Both the position numbers and the translations under genes were made by a program. The notes beneath the pieces are model-generated. The model saw only the letters and a program-made list of their open reading frames with translations. It ran no database searches and was not told the DNA's origin. A stretch of 64,000 nucleotides of DNA from a virus (Duplodnaviria > Heunggongvirae > Uroviricota > Caudoviricetes): IMG/VR virus record IMGVR_UViG_3300023174_000034, one strand, 5' to 3'. Shown in pieces: positions 44,036 through 51,389 of this stretch; position 1 is the first letter of the stretch; each line of letters opens with the position of its first letter.

Positions 44036-44112
44036 GGGCCGATAGCTTAGTGTCCTAAAGCAGTGGCCTCATAAGCCATTGATCCTGGGTTAGAATCCCA
44101 GTCGGCCCACCA
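44036..44112 (+). tRNA. tRNA-CAT, probably Ile2
   Basis: Cloverleaf, CT-CAT-AA loop, GGGCCGA acceptor, ACCA end. Confidence 0.8.
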
Positions 44113-44117
44113 AACAC

Positions 44118-44192
44118 CTGGCGTTAGTATAACGGATAATACAGTAAGCTTCTACCTTACGAATACGGGTTCGATTCCTGTGCGCCGGACCA
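44118..44192 (+). tRNA. tRNA-Arg(TCT)
   Basis: GTAAG-CTTCTAC-CTTAC arm, CCA. Confidence 0.85.
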
Positions 44193-44208
44193 AGACATAA
44201 GTAAATGC

Positions 44209-44676
44209 ATGGAACAAAAATCAAACCTTGCCAAGGGTAGAGACAGTTATGATTCTACTAGCACAGGCGCAATGATTCCGTTTTTCAATCGAAACGTCAC
44301 ACCTTACCCAACAGAAGCAGGTGGTCCTAAGTTTGACCTTGTGCCTGTGACACAGCAAAAAGATCTCATGATCAACCATGCCAGGATGTATGCCCAGCAA
44401 GAGTATGACAGGATCATGGAACTGGTAGTTGTGCTGGAAAAACAAGCACAAGCCATCAAGCGTAGATTAGATATCACTGATGCAGTGCATGCCGCAGTAT
44501 ATCAATTCCAGCCTGTGATGGGCAATGTGTACTGGTTGGCTTGGGATAAACGAAAGCAACAGAATATTTTAACACCAATGGGGCCAAATGACTGGTCAAG
44601 CTCTGCACCTGAAGACTATGAATACCAGGCACAAGTAAAGTACATGGGTGACCATACCTGGTTAGAAATTGAATAA
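44209..44676 (+). CDS. DUF2452-like protein
   Basis: PYPT..G.PKF, F.PV.G..Y.L, GP.DW, D.TW. Confidence 0.65.
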   Translation: MEQKSNLAKGRDSYDSTSTGAMIPFFNRNVTPYPTEAGGPKFDLVPVTQQKDLMINHARMYAQQEYDRIMELVVVLEKQAQAIKRRLDITDAVHAAVYQFQPVMGNVYWLAWDKRKQQNILTPMGPNDWSSSAPEDYEYQAQVKYMGDHTWLEIE

Positions 44677-44684
44677 AAACTACT

Positions 44685-44769
44685 GCGAGTATGGGGGAAT
44701 TGGTAGACCCAGCGGACTTAAAATCCGCCGCCGTTAGGCGTACCGGTTCGACTCCGGTTACTCGTACCA
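44685..44769 (+). tRNA. tRNA-Leu(TAA)
   Basis: Cloverleaf with long variable arm, CCA. Confidence 0.92.
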
Positions 44770-44812: not shown

Positions 44813-44989
44813 ATGTCAGAGACACATGCCCGTACAATCGTCCGTACAGTAAGTTATAGAATAACAGCCCTGCTGATCACAGCAATTTGGACTGGACTAG
44901 GTGATGCAATAGTGATCCATATAGTTCTAGCAACATTGCATTATGCCATGGAACGTGCCTGGCTCAAAATACACTGGGGAAAACTATGA
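44813..44989 (+). CDS. DUF2061-like small membrane protein (58 aa, below the ORF-track cutoff)
   Basis: MSETHARTIVRTVSYRI...HYAMERAWLKIHWG; ATGA overlap with the next gene. Confidence 0.8.
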   Translation: MSETHARTIVRTVSYRITALLITAIWTGLGDAIVIHIVLATLHYAMERAWLKIHWGKL

Positions 44990-45861
44990 ACTATCACTTG
45001 CATGAAAACGGCTGGACTGTGATCCTGGATGATTTTGACTTTGCCACAGCCACACAAGAAGATATCAATGAAATTGGTTGTTTGTTAGCAACCAATACCC
45101 TTGTAGTTGCTCACGACCAAAATCATCTCACAGTACAAGACGAAGTGCATGTGGCACAAATGTTTGGCACAGTAGAAGATTTATCAGCAGTGGCAGATGT
45201 GCCACCTTACAATCATATCTTGGTACCAGGTAGTGGTAACAAAATGGAACGGGTGACCGGTGAACTAGATGAACACGGACTGCCTGGCTTGTTTGGTCAC
45301 GTGAGTGATCTTGATTGGCATTGCAATCAGCCAGGTGATCCTCAGCGCAAGCCACTAGTTTGGTTGTTGGGTGTGCGTGGTACCGAAGGTAGCAGGACCA
45401 GTTGGACCAACAACATCCTGGCCTACGATGATTTGAGCGAAGAAGAAAAGCAAACTTTTGCGGACTTTCGTATGGTGTGTGGTTGGAAACGCTACAGCTA
45501 CAGCGAGTTTGACTTTGGTGGTGCCAAACAAGGTCGGCAAGAAGACTTCAACGAACACTACACACCAAATCTTGTGCATACCAACATTGGACGCAAGACA
45601 GGACTATTTTTTCCGTTTTTGCAATTTCGTAACTTTGTGGGGTTGACAGAAAGCATGAGCAAGCGCATAATACAAGACTTACGCGATCATGTGTTGCAAG
45701 ACAAATACATTTACCATCATGACTGGAAGGATGGGGATGTAGTGATCTCGGAACAGTGGTTGGGAATACACAAGCGTTGGAAGTTCGATGGCATGCCTGA
45801 TCGTGTGCTACACCGTACAACATTTGACTTTGCCAACTGCGATCTAAGTAAAATTAGTTAA
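44986..45861 (+). CDS. TauD/TfdA-family dioxygenase-like protein
   Basis: WHCN, H.W.DGD.V, distal H.R, RVLHR. Confidence 0.8.
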   Translation: MNYHLHENGWTVILDDFDFATATQEDINEIGCLLATNTLVVAHDQNHLTVQDEVHVAQMFGTVEDLSAVADVPPYNHILVPGSGNKMERVTGELDEHGLPGLFGHVSDLDWHCNQPGDPQRKPLVWLLGVRGTEGSRTSWTNNILAYDDLSEEEKQTFADFRMVCGWKRYSYSEFDFGGAKQGRQEDFNEHYTPNLVHTNIGRKTGLFFPFLQFRNFVGLTESMSKRIIQDLRDHVLQDKYIYHHDWKDGDVVISEQWLGIHKRWKFDGMPDRVLHRTTFDFANCDLSKIS

Positions 45862-45904
45862 TTTGCAATTTTTTGCCATTTGACTAAATAAAACACAATA
45901 GAGG

Positions 45905-45933
45905 TTGACAGCATTGCTAAATATCTCTACAAT
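45905..45933 (+). promoter_or_regulatory. sigma70 promoter of the attenuated leader
   Basis: TTGACA-17-TACAAT. Confidence 0.85.
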
Positions 45934-45987
45934 ACAAGACATACACAGCGTATAGTACGCTAGGTATCAAAAGGAAAAAGAAACAAA

Positions 45988-46128
45988 ATGAAATCGACAT
46001 TCGTTCTCAACTGCAAACAGCATAGCCAAGCATATTCATTTATGCCGGTGGCCTTGTGGTCTGCGACTGAGATTAGTAATGATCGCACACTACCAGGCAC
46101 CAAGGGTCCAGGAGATTCGCATAGTTAA
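45988..46128 (+). CDS. Putative attenuator leader peptide (46 aa, all 20 amino acids)
   Basis: AAGGA RBS at 45971; MKSTFVLNCKQHSQAYSFMPVALWSATEISNDRTLPGTKGPGDSHS*. Confidence 0.8.
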   Translation: MKSTFVLNCKQHSQAYSFMPVALWSATEISNDRTLPGTKGPGDSHS

Positions 46129-46160
46129 CACAAATTAACTCAGCAAACTCCAAGGACCCT
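46103..46160 (+). promoter_or_regulatory. Antiterminator hairpin
   Basis: AGGGTCC/GGACCCT, GGAG/CTCC and AGTTAA/TTAACT nested pairings. Confidence 0.75.
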
Positions 46161-46191
46161 AGGCTTAAAAACCCTGGGGTTTTTTGTTTTT
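46156..46191 (+). terminator. Intrinsic (attenuator) terminator
   Basis: ACCCTAGG-9nt-CCTGGGGT followed by TTTTTGTTTTT. Confidence 0.85.
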
Positions 46192-46206
46192 AGGATCATG
46201 AAAAGT

Positions 46207-46312
46207 GTGTATAGGGAACGCGACCCTGCTGGCACTATAAACATCGGCTATAATGAGGGCGGCTTACCGGATGAGAAGTCTGTGGTGGAAACGCAGATGG
46301 TAAAATGGTAAC
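46207..46312 (+). ncRNA. Putative structured RNA with GATGAGAAG module
   Basis: TTACC/GGTAA stem enclosing GATGAGAAG and a TCTGTG/CGCAGA hairpin; no ORF. Confidence 0.4.
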
Positions 46313-46376
46313 GTATTAAAGCATTCTCTACCCGCGAGGGGACAAGTGGGTTCATCCATGTAGAGTGCTTTAATAC
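46313..46376 (+). ncRNA. Closed-stem three-way-junction RNA
   Basis: GTATTAAAGCATTCTCTA/TAGAGTGCTTTAATAC enclosing two small hairpins. Confidence 0.55.
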
Positions 46377-46449
46377 CTGCATTGGATGGCCAAGCCTAAC
46401 CGACTGTGAATCGGCAGGCGGCAGGTTGTGGACGCAACAACCAGTGCAG
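46377..46449 (+). ncRNA. Closed-stem three-way-junction RNA
   Basis: CTGCATTGG/CCAGTGCAG enclosing two hairpins. Confidence 0.5.
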
Positions 46450-46493
46450 TAAAAACAAAGACCTTACAGCTTGTAGGGTTATAAAAACAGAGG

Positions 46494-46521
46494 TTGACGT
46501 TTTCGCAAAAGATGTTATACT
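46494..46521 (+). promoter_or_regulatory. sigma70 promoter (extended -10) upstream of the main tRNA array
   Basis: TTGACG-16-TATACT with TGn. Confidence 0.65.
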
Positions 46522-46581
46522 TGTGGAACTGTAGCAAACATCGTGTTGCTAGAACAACTGCATACTCATGCAGACGAATAC

Positions 46582-46597
46582 AGTTCATTAACAATCT
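46582..46597 (+). promoter_or_regulatory. boxA-like antitermination element
   Basis: AGTTCATTAACAATCT resembles rrn boxA TGCTCTTTAACAATTT. Confidence 0.55.
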
Positions 46598-46610
46598 GTT
46601 GTGACAAATT

Positions 46611-46695
46611 GCCCCGATGGTGGAATTGGTAGACACGCTGGTCTTAGAAGCCAGTGCCGAGAGGCGTAGGAGTTCAAGTCTCCTTTGGGGCACCA
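46611..46695 (+). tRNA. tRNA-Leu(TAG)
   Basis: Cloverleaf, long variable arm, CCA. Confidence 0.93.
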
Positions 46696-46902
46696 TATTA
46701 AAATGTATTAGAGGTTGTCAGCACCGCTAGGTGCTTGCACTGAGGATAACTAGCTGACGGGCTGGCTCTGTGCAACGCACATGAAAGTTGAGGGGAAACC
46801 CAAGTATGACACGGTGGAGTATGCTGAACTGTAATGACGAAGCGGAAGTAGCAGGAGACGGTCCTGTGAGGTAAGTGGAGTTCCTGTAGTATGTTTTAAT
46901 AT
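46696..46902 (+). ncRNA. Putative ~205-nt structured RNA
   Basis: ATATTAAAATGTATTA/TAGTATGTTTTAATAT closing stem fills the whole Leu-Tyr spacer. Confidence 0.55.
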
Positions 46903-46988
46903 GGAGATGTGGCAGAGTGGTTGATTGCAACAGACTGTAAATCTGTCCCCTAAAAAGCGCGGTGGTTCGAATCCATCCATCTCCACCA
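46903..46988 (+). tRNA. tRNA-Tyr(GTA)
   Basis: Cloverleaf, CCA. Confidence 0.93.
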
Positions 46989-46994
46989 TTTAAT

Positions 46995-47070
46995 GCACGG
47001 TTCGTCTATCGGTTTAGGACACTAGCCTTTCACGTTAGTAAGACGGGTTCGATTCCCGTACCGTGTACCA
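46995..47070 (+). tRNA. tRNA-Glu(TTC)
   Basis: Cloverleaf, CCA. Confidence 0.92.
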
Positions 47071-47074
47071 TTAT

Positions 47075-47150
47075 GCTTCGTTAGCTCAATTGGGAGAGCG
47101 CGACACTGTCACTGTCGAGGTAAGGGGATCGAAACCCCTACGAGGCGCCA
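47075..47150 (+). tRNA. tRNA-Asp(GTC)
   Basis: Cloverleaf, GCCA end; T-loop begins ATCG. Confidence 0.9.
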
Positions 47151-47153
47151 AGT

Positions 47154-47376
47154 TTTGAGAGTGTCAGCAAGTACAGTCACGCTAATGAGGTTTCTTCGAA
47201 GGACCAAGTTAGTAAAAGGGGACGGGTTCAACTCCCGGCCGATCGCTTGAATGGGATCGGCGCAGATGGTTGCTAACTGGACAGGTACCCAAGTGATATC
47301 CATCGTGCTCGAGGTCAGGCTAGGCGGCCGGTAAGTCCTGAATAAATCTACGATAAAAGCGGCGTAGGCTCTCAAA
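47154..47376 (+). ncRNA. Putative ~220-nt structured RNA
   Basis: TTTGAGAGT/GCTCTCAAA closing stem, GCCGATC/GATCGGC hairpin, T-arm-like GGGTTCAACTCCC. Confidence 0.55.
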
Positions 47377-47393
47377 TTCAATCTCACCCTTAC

Positions 47394-47455
47394 ATACATT
47401 GGTCTACCGCCACCGAGAGGTAGTTAAAGACAATGACAAGCAACAGCCAGTGTGT
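47394..47455 (+). ncRNA. Small closed-stem RNA
   Basis: ATACATTGG/CCAGTGTGT closing stem; CTACC/GGTAG hairpin. Confidence 0.4.
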
Positions 47456-47469
47456 TTCAGTATAGCAAC

Positions 47470-47547
47470 GCAACGGTGGCAGAGCGGCCCAATGCACGGG
47501 ATTGCAAATCCTGAAAACCACAGGTTCAAATCCTGTCCGTTGCTCCA
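47470..47547 (+). tRNA. tRNA-Cys(GCA)
   Basis: Cloverleaf, TCCA end. Confidence 0.9.
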
Positions 47548-47765
47548 AGAACGTTCTGCCCTAATCAGCAGATAGTGTGACCCGCACGATGAGAAGTGGT
47601 GTGATAGCCAAGGGTGGTAGTCTTCTTACCAAAAGGCCGCTGGCAATGCGAGAACGGAACCTGTCGGGAAGTGGGTGGAGGCCGTGCGTGATGAAAGACT
47701 AATTGGGGCAACCTGACCAAATTTCTGATGCGGTATAATTACCACCGGGGTCGCCGAGCATTTTT
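47548..47765 (+). ncRNA. Putative ~215-nt structured RNA
   Basis: GC-rich non-coding spacer with multiple stems and a GATGAGAAG module. Confidence 0.45.
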
Positions 47766-47786
47766 AATTTAACATTGGAGAATGAC

Positions 47787-47807
47787 ATGAAACGAGGTAA
47801 ACTCTAG
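47787..47807 (+). CDS. Minigene MKRGKL* upstream of the tRNA-Lys pair
   Basis: GGAG RBS at 47777-47780; ATG AAA CGA GGT AAA CTC TAG. Confidence 0.55.
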   Translation: MKRGKL

Positions 47808-47867
47808 TGTCACTCTAGGCATCCGTATGGTCTAGGGTTGGCACGTAAAATCAAACGATACGTACAA

Positions 47868-47943
47868 CCCTGTGTGGCGCAGTTGGTAGCGCAACGGACT
47901 CTTAATCCGCTGGTCGTCAGTTCGAGCCTGACCGCAGGGACCA
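47868..47943 (+). tRNA. tRNA-Lys(CTT)
   Basis: Cloverleaf, ACCA. Confidence 0.9.
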
Positions 47944-47946
47944 TAT

Positions 47947-48022
47947 GGAAGCATAACTCAATGGCTAGAGTACCCGGCTTTTAACCGGATAGTTGTGGGT
48001 TCGAGTCCCACTGCTTCTACCA
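47947..48022 (+). tRNA. tRNA-Lys(TTT)
   Basis: Cloverleaf, ACCA. Confidence 0.9.
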
Positions 48023-48093
48023 TATAAAAACATACTACGCACGGTGAACAGCCCGTCCCAAGGAACTTGAGAGGATAGTGTGTTTCTATATGG
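48023..48093 (+). ncRNA. Small closed-stem RNA
   Basis: (ACCA)TATAAAAACATACTA/TAGTGTGTTTCTATATGGT stem around a ~38-nt insert. Confidence 0.5.
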
Positions 48094-48099
48094 TATTAT

Positions 48100-48174
48100 T
48101 GCCTATTAGCTCAGTGGTAGAGCACCGTCTTGATAAGGCGGGGGTCCTTGGATCGTTCCCAAGATAGGCAACCA
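48100..48174 (+). tRNA. tRNA-Ile(GAT)
   Basis: Cloverleaf; atypical T-loop ATCGTTC. Confidence 0.85.
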
Positions 48175-48218
48175 AAAATTTTGTAATAGCAATATTGCAT
48201 TGATAAGTAGAAGTGTAT

Positions 48219-48294
48219 GCGGGAATAGCTCAGTTGGTAGAGCGATACCTTGCCAAGGTATAGGTCGGGAGTTCGAGCCTCCTTTCCCGCTCCA
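48219..48294 (+). tRNA. tRNA-Gly(GCC)
   Basis: Canonical cloverleaf, TCCA. Confidence 0.95.
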
Positions 48295-48315
48295 TACATT
48301 TCAAACAAAATATAT

Positions 48316-48391
48316 TCCGCAGTAGCTCAGTCGGTAGAGTAGATGACTGTTAATCATTTGGTCGGTGGTTCGAGCCCACCCTGTGGAGCCA
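48316..48391 (+). tRNA. tRNA-Asn(GTT)
   Basis: Cloverleaf, GCCA. Confidence 0.93.
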
Positions 48392-48397
48392 GTATTT

Positions 48398-48473
48398 GGG
48401 GGATTAGCTCAGTTGGGAGAGCGGTTGCTTTGCAAGCAATAGGTCGCAGGTTCGATCCCTGTATCCTCCACCA
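48398..48473 (+). tRNA. tRNA-Ala(TGC)
   Basis: G3:U70, ACCA. Confidence 0.95.
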
Positions 48474-48480
48474 ATTTATT

Positions 48481-48557
48481 CGGAGTGTGGCGCAGTCCGG
48501 TAGCGCACCTGGTTTGGGACCAGGGGGTCCAAGGTTCGAATCCTTGTACTCCGACCA
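48481..48557 (+). tRNA. tRNA-Pro(TGG)
   Basis: Canonical cloverleaf. Confidence 0.95.
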
Positions 48558-48566
48558 TGTTAGTTT

Positions 48567-48641
48567 GCATCCTTAGCTCAGGGGTAGAGCGTTTCCTTTA
48601 CACGGAAAGGGTCCGCGGTTCGAAACCGTGAGGATGTACCA
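48567..48641 (+). tRNA. tRNA-Val(TAC)
   Basis: Cloverleaf, ACCA. Confidence 0.9.
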
Positions 48642-48678
48642 ATTTTTATCAGCAAGCACAAGTGATTAAATATTAACT

Positions 48679-49488
48679 ATGCAAAACAAACCAACTGATA
48701 CATTGTATCCACTCAATGACGCTTTGTTTCAAAGATTAAGACAGCAATGGTTTCAGGATCCGCAACGCGAAGTATCCAAAGATGAATACATTGCAGTTGC
48801 ACAGGAATGGTTTCGATCTACTCGACTTAACAATTTAACTGGATGGGACGCTTTTCCTTGTGTGGATTCAACCATGGGTTGTACTCATTTCATTGAGTCT
48901 GTGGCCGGCAAACATGGTTGGAACAATATCCAGATTCTGCCAGACGAATATTCTTACTATAGCAAAATGGGCATGGCTCCAACACAGCCAGGACAGCTTC
49001 GCCCAGGTGTGCCGCTGATGCTGTCGTTGCCTAATCATAGTTATACAGATGTAAGGCCGGACTGGCCAGATGTACTAGCAGAGTGTGAAGCCAAGAACAT
49101 TGACATACACATTGACTGTGCTTGGCTAACCTGTTCTAGAGATATAACACTTAATTTTGATCATCCCAGGATACAGAGCTTTGCAATGAGCATGAGCAAG
49201 TACTCGCTGGAATGGAATCGCATAGGATTGCGCTGGGCAAGAAAACGTTATATTGATTCCATTACAATGTTTAATCATCTTTACCGTGGTCGCGTAAATC
49301 TAAGTTTGATGAGTTGCGGCGTGTACATGATGCAAAACATTCCACGTGACCATGCGTGGAACACATACGGAGAGTTGCATCACAAGATATGCAATGATCT
49401 AAATCTATTGCCTACAAAAGCAATACACGTAGCATACTGCAATCAAACACATAAAAATGTTGGCATTGGCAATATGCTATCAGAATAG
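48679..49488 (+). CDS. Hypothetical protein, PLP-dependent transferase-like fold
   Basis: S.PN, IHIDCAW, FAMSMSK......RIG; TAAATA at 48667. Confidence 0.6.
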   Translation: MQNKPTDTLYPLNDALFQRLRQQWFQDPQREVSKDEYIAVAQEWFRSTRLNNLTGWDAFPCVDSTMGCTHFIESVAGKHGWNNIQILPDEYSYYSKMGMAPTQPGQLRPGVPLMLSLPNHSYTDVRPDWPDVLAECEAKNIDIHIDCAWLTCSRDITLNFDHPRIQSFAMSMSKYSLEWNRIGLRWARKRYIDSITMFNHLYRGRVNLSLMSCGVYMMQNIPRDHAWNTYGELHHKICNDLNLLPTKAIHVAYCNQTHKNVGIGNMLSE

Positions 49489-49494
49489 TTCTGT

Positions 49495-49570
49495 TGGGGT
49501 GTCGCCTAGTGGCCTAAGGCAACGGTCTTTGAAATCGTCATCATGAGTTCGAATCTCATCTCCCCTGCCA
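49495..49570 (+). tRNA. tRNA-Gln(TTG)
   Basis: Cloverleaf with acceptor mismatches, GCCA. Confidence 0.85.
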
Positions 49571-49578
49571 AATACAAT

Positions 49579-49655
49579 GCGACCGTAGCTCAGTTGGATA
49601 GAGTACTGGCCTACGAAGTCAGGTGTCGGGAGTTCGAGTCTCTCCGGTCGCACCA
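49579..49655 (+). tRNA. tRNA-Arg(ACG)
   Basis: Cloverleaf, CCA. Confidence 0.93.
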
Positions 49656-49661
49656 ATACAA

Positions 49662-49735
49662 GCCCTGTTAGTTAAGTGGTATAACAACTGTTTTGTAATC
49701 AGTAGTTGGCAGTTCGATTCTGTCACGGGGCACCA
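49662..49735 (+). tRNA. tRNA-Thr(TGT)
   Basis: Cloverleaf, CCA. Confidence 0.88.
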
Positions 49736-49742
49736 GTTTTAT

Positions 49743-49817
49743 GTTGAGGTTAGTTTAGTGGTAAAACCGCGGGTTGTGATTCCGCTATCACGAGTTCGAT
49801 CCTCGTACCTCAACCCA
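49743..49817 (+). tRNA. tRNA-His(GTG)
   Basis: G-1:C73 pair, CCA. Confidence 0.9.
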
Positions 49818-49824
49818 ATACAAT

Positions 49825-49900
49825 GCCAAGATAGCTCATCAGGTAGAGCACTAGTTTGAAGCACTAGGTGTGGTTGGTTCGAGTCCAACTCTTGGTACCA
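49825..49900 (+). tRNA. tRNA-Phe(GAA)
   Basis: Cloverleaf; G37. Confidence 0.88.
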
Positions 49901-49903
49901 TAT

Positions 49904-49978
49904 GCCTCTTTGGTGAAATGGATATCATCTTTGTCTTCGAAACAAAGGGTGTGGGTTCGATTCCTGCAAGAGGCGCCA
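49904..49978 (+). tRNA. tRNA-Arg(TCG)
   Basis: Cloverleaf, GCCA. Confidence 0.88.
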
Positions 49979-49980
49979 AC

Positions 49981-50055
49981 ATCGCTATAGTTCAGTGGAT
50001 AGAACAAAACACTCCTAAGGTTAAGACGGAGGTTCGATTCCTCCTAGCGGTACCA
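49981..50055 (+). tRNA. tRNA-Arg(CCT)
   Basis: Cloverleaf with weak anticodon stem, CCA. Confidence 0.78.
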
Positions 50056-50057
50056 AC

Positions 50058-50133
50058 AGTTCCTTAGCTCAGTTGGTAGAGCGTTACGTTGACATCGTAA
50101 AGGTCAGTGGTTCAAACCCGCTAGGAACTACCA
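50058..50133 (+). tRNA. tRNA-Val(GAC)
   Basis: Cloverleaf, ACCA. Confidence 0.92.
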
Positions 50134-50142
50134 AAATAAACA

Positions 50143-50171
50143 TTGACATCAATGTAGTATCAATATATAAT
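50143..50171 (+). promoter_or_regulatory. Internal sigma70 promoter in the tRNA array
   Basis: TTGACA-17-TATAAT. Confidence 0.88.
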
Positions 50172-50181
50172 ACAAACAACT

Positions 50182-50273
50182 GGAAACGTGGCCGAGTGGT
50201 CTAAGGCAGCAGGTTGCTAACCTGTCGTGTCAAGTAATTGGCACCGAGAGTTCGAATCTCTCCGTTTCCGCCA
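50182..50273 (+). tRNA. tRNA-Ser(GCT)
   Basis: Long variable arm, GCCA. Confidence 0.93.
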
Positions 50274-50280
50274 AGATTAT

Positions 50281-50354
50281 CGCGGGATAGAGTAACGGTA
50301 ATTCAGAAGTCTCATAAGCTTCAGATGGTGGTTCGATTCCGCCTCCCGCAACCA
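50281..50354 (+). tRNA. tRNA-fMet-like (CAT)
   Basis: CGCGGG start, C1:A72 mismatch. Confidence 0.85.
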
Positions 50355-50359
50355 GTTAT

Positions 50360-50473
50360 GCTTTCTGTAGTAGCTACAATGGAACACCGAAATACTTGTC
50401 AATGTCGACCATGTACAAGGACCGGCCATGAAGAGTAGGGCTACCGTGGATTCAAGCGCCGCAGAAAGCACCA
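50360..50473 (+). ncRNA. CCA-terminated tRNA-like RNA
   Basis: GCTTTCTGT/GCAGAAAGC stem + ACCA; long irregular arm in place of D and anticodon arms. Confidence 0.6.
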
Positions 50474-50478
50474 TACAT

Positions 50479-50555
50479 GGCTCCGTAGTTCAGTCCGGCA
50501 GAACGTTGGTCTCCAAAACCAAATGTCAGTGGTTCAAATCCATTCGGGGTCGCCA
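50479..50555 (+). tRNA. tRNA-Trp(CCA)
   Basis: Cloverleaf, GCCA. Confidence 0.9.
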
Positions 50556-50559
50556 ATTT

Positions 50560-50635
50560 GGATGTATAGCATAGTGGCTAATGCAGTTCCTTCATACGGA
50601 AAAGATCGTTGGTTCGAGTCCAACTACATCCACCA
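50560..50635 (+). tRNA. tRNA-Met(CAT), elongator
   Basis: TT-CAT-AC loop, ACCA. Confidence 0.85.
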
Positions 50636-50637
50636 AG

Positions 50638-50790
50638 TTTCTGAGATAGACGTAGGGTTTGAGTCCCACTTAGTCTAGCCGAGTGGCTGCTCGGTGACAA
50701 CGCAAGATGGCTATTTGTGGTCAGCAAAGACTTGCCCTTACGAGACAATCCAGCAAGGCCGGGCCACCCGGATAGTTGGGCACTTGGAAA
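50638..50790 (+). ncRNA. Putative ~150-nt structured RNA
   Basis: TTTCTGAG/CTTGGAAA closing stem, T-arm-like GGGTTTGAGTCCC, CCGAG/CTCGG hairpin. Confidence 0.5.
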
Positions 50791-50799
50791 ACCTATAAC

Positions 50800-50877
50800 G
50801 CCCCTGTGGACAAATTGGCAAAGTCGTCTCTCTCAAAAGGAGAAATTCTCTCGGTTCGACTCCGAGCGGGGGTACCA
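50800..50877 (+). tRNA. tRNA-Leu(CAA), short variable loop
   Basis: TCTCT-CTCAAAA-GGAGA arm, ACCA. Confidence 0.8.
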
Positions 50878-50878
50878 C

Positions 50879-50952
50879 GCTCTTGTAGTTAAGTGGCATA
50901 ACGGCTCCATGGTAAGGAGCAATCGACAGTTCGATTCTGTACTTGAGCACCA
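50879..50952 (+). tRNA. tRNA-Thr(GGT)
   Basis: GCTCC-ATGGTAA-GGAGC arm; two U:U mismatches in the acceptor stem. Confidence 0.78.
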
Positions 50953-50958
50953 ATATTG

Positions 50959-50987
50959 TTGACTAGCTTTGTGCAGTACTATATACT
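50959..50987 (+). promoter_or_regulatory. sigma70 promoter, probably giving a leaderless mRNA
   Basis: TTGACT-17-TATACT; ATG ATG at 50991/50994. Confidence 0.75.
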
Positions 50988-50990
50988 GTT

Positions 50991-51389
50991 ATGATGAATA
51001 GAGTTTTTGTTAATGGTACGTTTGATATCCTGCATCCAGGCCATGTGATGTTGTTGCAGTATGCGGCCAGTCTTGGTCAAGTCACAGTTGCCATTGACAC
51101 AGACCGTCGGGTACGCCAGCTGAAAGGCGCAGGTCGTCCGTTCTTTAATCAAGACGAACGCCGACTAATGCTACAAGGTCTAAAGTATGTGAGCAAGGTA
51201 TGTACCTTTGACACAGATCAAGAACTAGAATACCTTATTCAAACCAGCGAACCAGACATCATGGTCAAAGGCAGTGATTACCGTGGGCGTCCAATCATTG
51301 GAGAAGAGCACGTGCCACACATAGAATTTTTTGAAAGACTTGATGAGTACTCCAGTACAAAAGCAATTCAACATATTGTTACTAGGTGA
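50991..51389 (+). CDS. Cytidylyltransferase-like nucleotidyltransferase (HldE/RfaE domain II-like)
   Basis: NGTFDILHPGH, LKG.GRP, VKGSDY, YSST. Confidence 0.9.
   Translation: MMNRVFVNGTFDILHPGHVMLLQYAASLGQVTVAIDTDRRVRQLKGAGRPFFNQDERRLMLQGLKYVSKVCTFDTDQELEYLIQTSEPDIMVKGSDYRGRPIIGEEHVPHIEFFERLDEYSSTKAIQHIVTR

Follow-up and report, generated by a model that had tools for sequence, protein, structure and literature searches.

Upstream of an array of 27 tRNA genes, the window (the whole 64-kb stretch of phage DNA analyzed here) carries what is quite probably a ribosome-controlled transcription attenuator, in which a short leader ORF senses the supply of aminoacyl-tRNA across the 20 amino acids and gates the RNA and tRNA module that follows it. 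The promoter, the conserved short ORF, the mutually exclusive helices and the tRNA array are established from sequence and comparison. That the element is a genuine attenuator comes close to certain, and that it senses aminoacyl-tRNAs broadly is likely. Its output would be transcription attenuation controlled by translation, which amends the "translational attenuator" of a first-pass annotation of the same DNA.

Leader ORF of the window

A promoter scan and coordinate check placed a sigma70-type promoter, P1 (TTGACA at 45905-45910 and TACAAT at 45928-45933, separated by 17 nt; 45905-45933, + strand), before a 46-codon ORF (45988-46128, +). Translation and comparison with homologs gave a leader peptide in which every one of the 20 amino acids occurs, Met also internally, with the 20th reached at codon 37. 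The AAGGA that the first-pass annotation took for the ribosome-binding site is present (45971-45975, +, by sequence inspection), but with 12 nt between it and the ATG, in A-rich surroundings, it makes a weak Shine-Dalgarno sequence. The annotated promoter, ORF, amino acid and codon coordinates were otherwise all reproduced.

Codons 1-40 comprise 37 distinct codons, with ATG, AAA and ACA the repeated ones. At least 37 distinct codons among 40 has a probability of 2.4e-4 with uniform codons, and none of 200,000 draws from the codon usage of the window reached this count, the 40-codon cut being post hoc; the maximum among 13,952 40-codon segments of real genes was 34. Over all 46 codons, 38 are distinct (P = 0.011, uniform; P = 1.1e-4, genome usage), and because of this weaker excess the codon statistic of a single locus is not decisive alone. 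The leader holds 38 of the 61 sense codons, lacking 23; of the 32 wobble classes, 4 are missing. It shows neither the tandem regulatory codons that are the hallmark of trp/his-type leaders nor the alanine enrichment of whiB7 uORFs (Ala, 3 of 46 codons). On both strands of the 64 kb, a terminator follows just three short ORFs, and this one alone has 20 amino acids.

Antiterminator, terminator and switch folding

Within the ORF, folding predicted a hairpin (46051-46098, +, -17.2 kcal/mol), a candidate RNA polymerase pause hairpin, and corresponding complementary motifs are visible in alignment A2 (by eye, covariation not counted). The 5′ arm of the antiterminator (46100-46114, +, by folding) lies in the last ORF codons, where AGGGTCC (46103-46109) and GGAG (46111-46114) face CTCC..GGACCCT (46148-46160), and a small hairpin across the stop codon (46123-46140, +, by folding) is nested in it. 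The 3′ arm of the antiterminator and the 5′ arm of the terminator share one strand (46148-46163, +, by folding and covariation). The intrinsic terminator (46156-46191, +, by terminator scan and folding) has its stem at 46156-46180 (8-9 bp, 9-nt loop, -11.1 kcal/mol) and a U tract to 46191; a standard terminator scanner skipped it because the loop limit of that program is 8. Antiterminator and terminator overlap at 46156-46163, so that folding and covariation make them mutually exclusive helices, and the pairing and shared strand claimed at first pass were recovered, with covarying stems.

The naked RNA of the window folded into the antiterminator (z = -5.3, -26.6 kcal/mol). Among homologs, the median antiterminator probability of naked RNA was 0.99, and a 1:2 protector giving termination when the leader is untranslated was not found. 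A pairing of 46051-46060 with 46099-46108, which had been raised as a possible limit on effective stall sites, is absent from the minimum-energy structure; there 46051-46060 pairs with 46092-46098, and no such limit is predicted.

Ribosome positions were simulated by removing the RNA under and behind the ribosome (an equilibrium model with an assumed footprint). In 102 homologs, this gave a median antiterminator probability of 0.92-1.0 for A sites up to ~12-15 nt before the arm, and a terminator probability of ~1 from 9 nt before the arm through the stop codon. For the window, the model predicts readthrough with the ribosome at codons 2-35 or 2-36, depending on the footprint, and termination beyond. 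Gly37, the first Gly of the window leader, is a borderline position (P = 0.31 for a footprint of 9 nt, 0 for 12 nt), and Glu is frequently found at the switch boundary in homologs. Before this boundary, homologs cover 19.1 amino acids, compared to 15.9 expected. Both conformations of the first-pass scheme are found in the model, and its masking logic, in which a ribosome reaching the stop codon covers the antiterminator, agrees with the predicted early readthrough and late termination.

Covariation was counted in 66 loci not chosen on their stems. Antiterminator pairs occurred as A-T (41), G-C (17) and G-T (6), and as C-G (59) and T-A (7), and the terminator partners remained paired through these swaps. 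Four loci (L263, L292, L295 and L305) have rewritten stems with pairing kept. Rfam 15 covariance models, including those for T-box, Trp, His, Leu, Thr and Phe leaders and ribozymes, gave no match.

Homologous loci

An RNA-only pattern search matched at least 119 IMG/VR stretches. Family counts refer to 107 unique loci, the window included, which are related, so that counts are not independent. A short ORF of 36-54 codons is present in 106 of the 107, starting 80-140 nt before the antiterminator arm and stopping mostly 21-27 nt after the first base of the arm, with its end in any of the three frames relative to the stem (79/6/21). The homolog comparison thus gave conserved ORF length and position, diverging peptides and covarying stems. 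Sigma70-type promoters lie within 130 nt of the leader ATG in 99 of 103 homologs, and in 28 promoter matches only 6-11 nt separate the end of the promoter from the ATG, which suggests leaderless initiation in a subset.

Same-strand tRNAs follow within 2 kb in all 67 loci with that much downstream DNA and lie upstream in 13 of 82, which bears out the link to a tRNA array drawn at first pass. In an independent sample collected only via a neighboring small gene, the leader was found in 36 of 36 loci, with 20 amino acids in 33. A 291-aa gene upstream of the element (44986-45861) was considered as a system component; since the element occurs in only 1 of 13 neighborhoods of this gene, it was placed outside the system.

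The same pattern run on 185,579 prokaryotic genomes gave 45 matches, one with a 20-amino-acid ORF, on a phage-like contig. That contig, 6 kb long and carrying the family member L172 (JBBAKF010000113.1), was binned in a Polynucleobacter MAG, which is a weak hint of the host or else mis-binning. L157 (Nanopelagicaceae), considered as a bacterial copy, reads by eye as the end of a cold-shock-protein-like gene. A second pattern with an altered core extended the search to further lineages, with a short ORF in 30 of 46, some of which are probably chance occurrences. In one of these loci, L369, a Leu/Ser/Gln-rich leader precedes Leu/Ser/Gln tRNAs. The most compact leaders seen (L361 and L389) have 25 codons and 19 amino acid types.

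Cultured phages

A generic scan covered the tRNA regions of 14 cultured jumbo phages (with the window, 625 kb in total) and found the leader-attenuator layout before tRNA blocks in four: Atu_ph07, Phosso, RsoM2USA and SCTP-2. In the Agrobacterium phage Atu_ph07, the leader is gp469, annotated as hypothetical (NC_042013.1 339118-339246, L311:4247, - strand), with 42 codons and 18 amino acid types, 123 nt before a tRNA cluster. The leader of the Sinorhizobium phage Phosso (PV764938.1, GTG start near 419754, L307:4755) has 54 codons and 19 types; it lacks Cys, and the tRNA-Cys of Phosso is located outside the array. In the Ralstonia phage RsoM2USA (L326:15362, -), an Asn/Ala-rich leader lies 17 nt before Met, Ile, Asn and Asn tRNAs. 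The Salicola phage SCTP-2 (MF360958.1) has four leaders (L337:4521, L337:11695, L337:16742 and L338:4198), 26-38 nt before four tRNA blocks, each richest in the amino acids of its own block (0.62, 0.57, 0.50 and 0.48, versus at most 0.31 elsewhere); with blocks defined by position, this matching is the best of 24 assignments.

Folding backs the switch in most cultured leaders; in SCTP-2, the model did not favor the antiterminator for leader 3 or, in leader 4, for the early codons. Because their sequences differ, the cultured leaders are analogues or remote relatives of the window family. A scan of tRNA regions for leaders with ATG starts found no leader-attenuator in Paride, PBECO4, GAP32, BF, Munch, Turkey5, XbC2, XaC1, XacN1 and Vibrio 2.275.O; GTG or TTG leaders could escape it in these ten phages.

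The tRNA array and elements downstream of the switch

PHROG matches to terminase, tail sheath, ssDNA-binding protein and UvsX identify the window as part of a large myovirus-type phage. Its closest cultured relatives, at ~50% identity, are the jumbo phages PA5oct/Paride, Phosso, Atu_ph07 and PBECO4, of which Atu_ph07 has been described as near Rak2-like phages; BLAST of the window region against cultured phages gave matches to tRNA-Leu only. By tRNA calls, 27 of the 31 tRNAs of the window sit in one array (46611-50952, +) covering all 20 amino acids, so that at the amino acid level there are 20 in the leader and 20 in the array.

Upstream of the attenuator, three tRNAs (CAT, Arg TCT and Leu TAA) lie at 44036-44769, and the window leader lacks ATA, AGA, AGG and TTA; the same trio is also upstream in several homologs whose leaders do hold such codons, and the match is not general. 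A long GC-rich non-coding spacer after tRNA-Cys (47550-47760) contains a GATGAGAAG motif found again at ~46271. A very short ORF with a GGAG site (47788-47805) is directly 5′ of two tRNA-Lys genes, and a perfect TTGACA-17-TATAAT promoter (50143-50171) lies within the array before tRNA-Ser(GCT). CTA-anticodon (amber-reading) tRNAs were called in or near the phage tRNA regions of L068, L308, L327 and L329.

The first element past the terminator is a conserved structured RNA (46203-46300, +, ends approximate), whose motif occurs in 52 of 95 homologs, with two stems covarying through double changes and several invariant loops; it has no Rfam match. Between there and the first tRNA, the non-coding DNA has further stable hairpins (46313-46376, 46380-46480 and 46520-46605). 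Sixty-five homologs have a small, conserved ORF of 45-62 aa just after the terminator, which is absent from the window. In L002:9650-9811 and 60 similar ORFs, the 45-62 aa protein has invariant Lys and Arg residues. For this protein, no match was obtained in PHROG, among cultured phages or in Atlas, and no convincing one in Pfam. No whiB7 gene lies downstream; what follows is ncRNA, tRNAs and often the small ORF without known family.

The attenuator might mainly control this adjoining element (the structured RNA, or in most homologs the 45-62 aa protein), with the array on promoters of its own. Such a division is compatible with tRNA control, and its probability, although low, is not negligible. 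It is suggested by the conserved RNA and small ORF themselves and by a second promoter, P2, located by promoter scan between attenuator and array (TTGACG-16-TATACT with TG, 46494-46521, +). The first-pass annotation had flagged this promoter as a caveat, and the caveat is real. P2-like promoters occur in 32 of 90 loci, including the window, and promoter-like sites inside arrays number ~0.44 per kb. Against this reading, the other 58 of the 90 lack a strong promoter ahead of the first tRNA, and in SCTP-2, RsoM2USA and Atu_ph07 the first tRNA is 17-123 nt past the terminator. In addition, no + strand terminator was found at 46192-51100, that at 46156-46191 being the only one in 45900-51100, so readthrough can cover the array. 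Given P2, control of the array in the window may be partial, and since P2 is a good match, the attenuator most likely adds inducible transcription over a basal level. Meaningful control of the array by the attenuator in this genome is nonetheless the favored expectation, by a fair margin of belief.

Amino acid completeness under selection

All 20 amino acids are present in 78 of 105 unique leader peptides, and the other 27 lack one to three. When alignment columns were shuffled among sequences, 12% of the peptides were complete (at most 23% over 2000 runs). Of crossover chimeras, 49% were complete; each of the five other frames gave 0-4%, and 47-codon segments of real genes gave 2.6%. The amino acid excess persisted after clustering at 70% and 60% identity (10 clusters at 60%: 19.4 versus 17.3). 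A single Cys was found in 24 different alignment columns, and an internal Met was present in 94% of leaders, as expected if the leader samples elongator tRNA-Met apart from the initiator.

On this comparative evidence, selection is for amino acid completeness and not for all codons; the leader is pan-amino-acid, not pan-codon. The pan-codon label given to the window leader at first pass is overstated, given its missing sense codons and wobble classes. For the family, literal pan-codon sampling was rejected: given the peptide, the codon excess was 0.3 codon (uniform synonyms) or 1.6 codons (pooled leader usage), or ~1 wobble class. With completeness and ~1 extra synonymous class, the sensing of "any tRNA" proposed at first pass stands for amino acids and shrinks, for isoacceptors, to roughly one or two per amino acid. 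A codon-level census of the phage's own anticodons was likewise rejected across the family (90.6% own versus 90.4% permuted, P = 0.37). Absence of a residue from the leader coincided with absence of its tRNA in 7 of 15 cases versus 158 of 965 (P = 0.007; loci incomplete and related).

The attenuator could also act as a general gauge of how fast translation runs or whether ribosomes are available (antibiotics, dormancy, coupling), its amino acid variety a by-product. Untranslated RNA defaults to the antiterminator, so any translation block would give readthrough; having a single codon for each amino acid makes for low sensitivity, and the whiB7 leader governs a response best known for antibiotic resistance. 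A general gauge, however, has no need for Cys, Trp, His and internal Met each to be kept while their positions shift, and the cognate leader-block matching in SCTP-2 and L369 points to tRNA identity, which renders it improbable. More improbable still is that the ORF product works as a small protein or arrest peptide and that the terminator behind it is an ordinary one. Some residues do recur (Trp and a DRTPE-like motif), but they fall where the in-ORF hairpin has its arms, all three frames occur for the C-terminal segment, the leader has no PHROG match, and a plain terminator needs no covarying antiterminator. A chance ORF with chance complementarity, to which the 40-codon cut chosen after looking and the P of only 0.011 over 46 uniform codons might point, is refuted by the homolog set, through family-wide conservation and all controls.

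Proposed mechanism

In the tRNA-supply reading, host RNA polymerase would start at P1 and a ribosome would follow on the leader ORF. If the ribosome passed about codon 36-37 in time, it would cover the 5′ arm of the antiterminator, the terminator would form and transcription would stop at 46191. If it were held at an earlier codon, or had never started, the more stable antiterminator would persist and transcription would continue into the structured RNA and the 27 tRNAs. Extra tRNAs are thus probably made when ribosomes stall, and the newly made tRNAs would relieve the stall, closing a negative feedback loop. Translation, pausing, conditional termination and feedback are what we infer from the layout of the sequence.

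At one or two leader codons for each amino acid, the response would be to severe tRNA loss or general slowdown, not to mild shortage, in agreement with attenuation theory, in which sparse regulatory codons give low sensitivity (PMC1183508). Extra tRNA would help more against tRNA destruction than against starvation. On balance, we lean slightly toward a wider proposal, that in jumbo phages of several lineages a leader audits aminoacyl-tRNA supply, either across the 20 amino acids together or one block at a time, and induces phage tRNAs on demand, chiefly to repair pools cut by host defense or infection. If so, leader composition is a record of the tRNAs that each phage was selected to monitor.

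The purpose of phage tRNA genes has been open for decades, according to two reports (PMC13015707, PMC10264068). If phage tRNAs compensate for codon usage, their expression should be steady; if they replace lost tRNAs, it should come on demand. A sensor connected to the array distinguishes the two and shows which signal matters. The Agrobacterium and Sinorhizobium cultured phages make the idea testable now, and a cassette of 25-46 codons reporting all amino acids would be a compact biosensor of translation stress.

Comparison with known systems

The trpL, hisL, pheL, thrL and ilv leaders carry repeated codons that specify one, two or three amino acids. T-box riboswitches bind one uncharged tRNA directly, without translation; the phage element resembles them in that tRNA status sets the choice between terminator and antiterminator, and has no Rfam T-box match. 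With amino acid operon leaders (model in PMC1183508), it shares a race between ribosome and RNA polymerase, an ORF end over the antiterminator, an intrinsic terminator and a probable pause hairpin. Those leaders control biosynthetic or synthetase genes and, if untranslated, give termination through a 1:2 protector, whereas the phage element has no repeats, contains 20 amino acids and, if untranslated, would give readthrough.

The trn operon of Anabaena PCC 7120 is a long tRNA array inducible when translation is impaired (PMC8421152), with TrcR as repressor (PMC10272220). It is like the phage element in inducing a tRNA array on translation impairment, and differs in its protein repressor and its location on a bacterial plasmid. 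The tRNA-Tyr of phage T5 counters retron-Eco7, and the accessible text of that study attributes its expression to a strong promoter and describes no sensing element (PMC11555353); the case as given there offers a motive for the phage element, the replacement of tRNAs destroyed by host defense. A search of open-access literature turned up no report that tRNA genes are controlled by attenuation, or that phage tRNA arrays contain it; ribosome-mediated attenuation is known, and no earlier description was found with tRNA genes as its target.

The closest precedent is the mycobacterial whiB7 uORF attenuator, where stalling on the uORF leads to readthrough and loss of its start codon raises expression (PMC10274678). 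In M. smegmatis, the whiB7 (wblC) uORF contains 19 of the 20 amino acids, and it depends on this composition which starvations it detects, one Trp codon being enough (PMC10274678). Both systems combine a uORF of broad amino acid content with an antiterminator and terminator and read through if the uORF is stalled or untranslated, a likeness in mode of action. The whiB7 element is bacterial and controls a transcription factor, whereas the output of the phage element is tRNA genes; and the whiB7 uORF is alanine-enriched, with several amino acids missing in M. tuberculosis, whereas the phage family conserves completeness itself.
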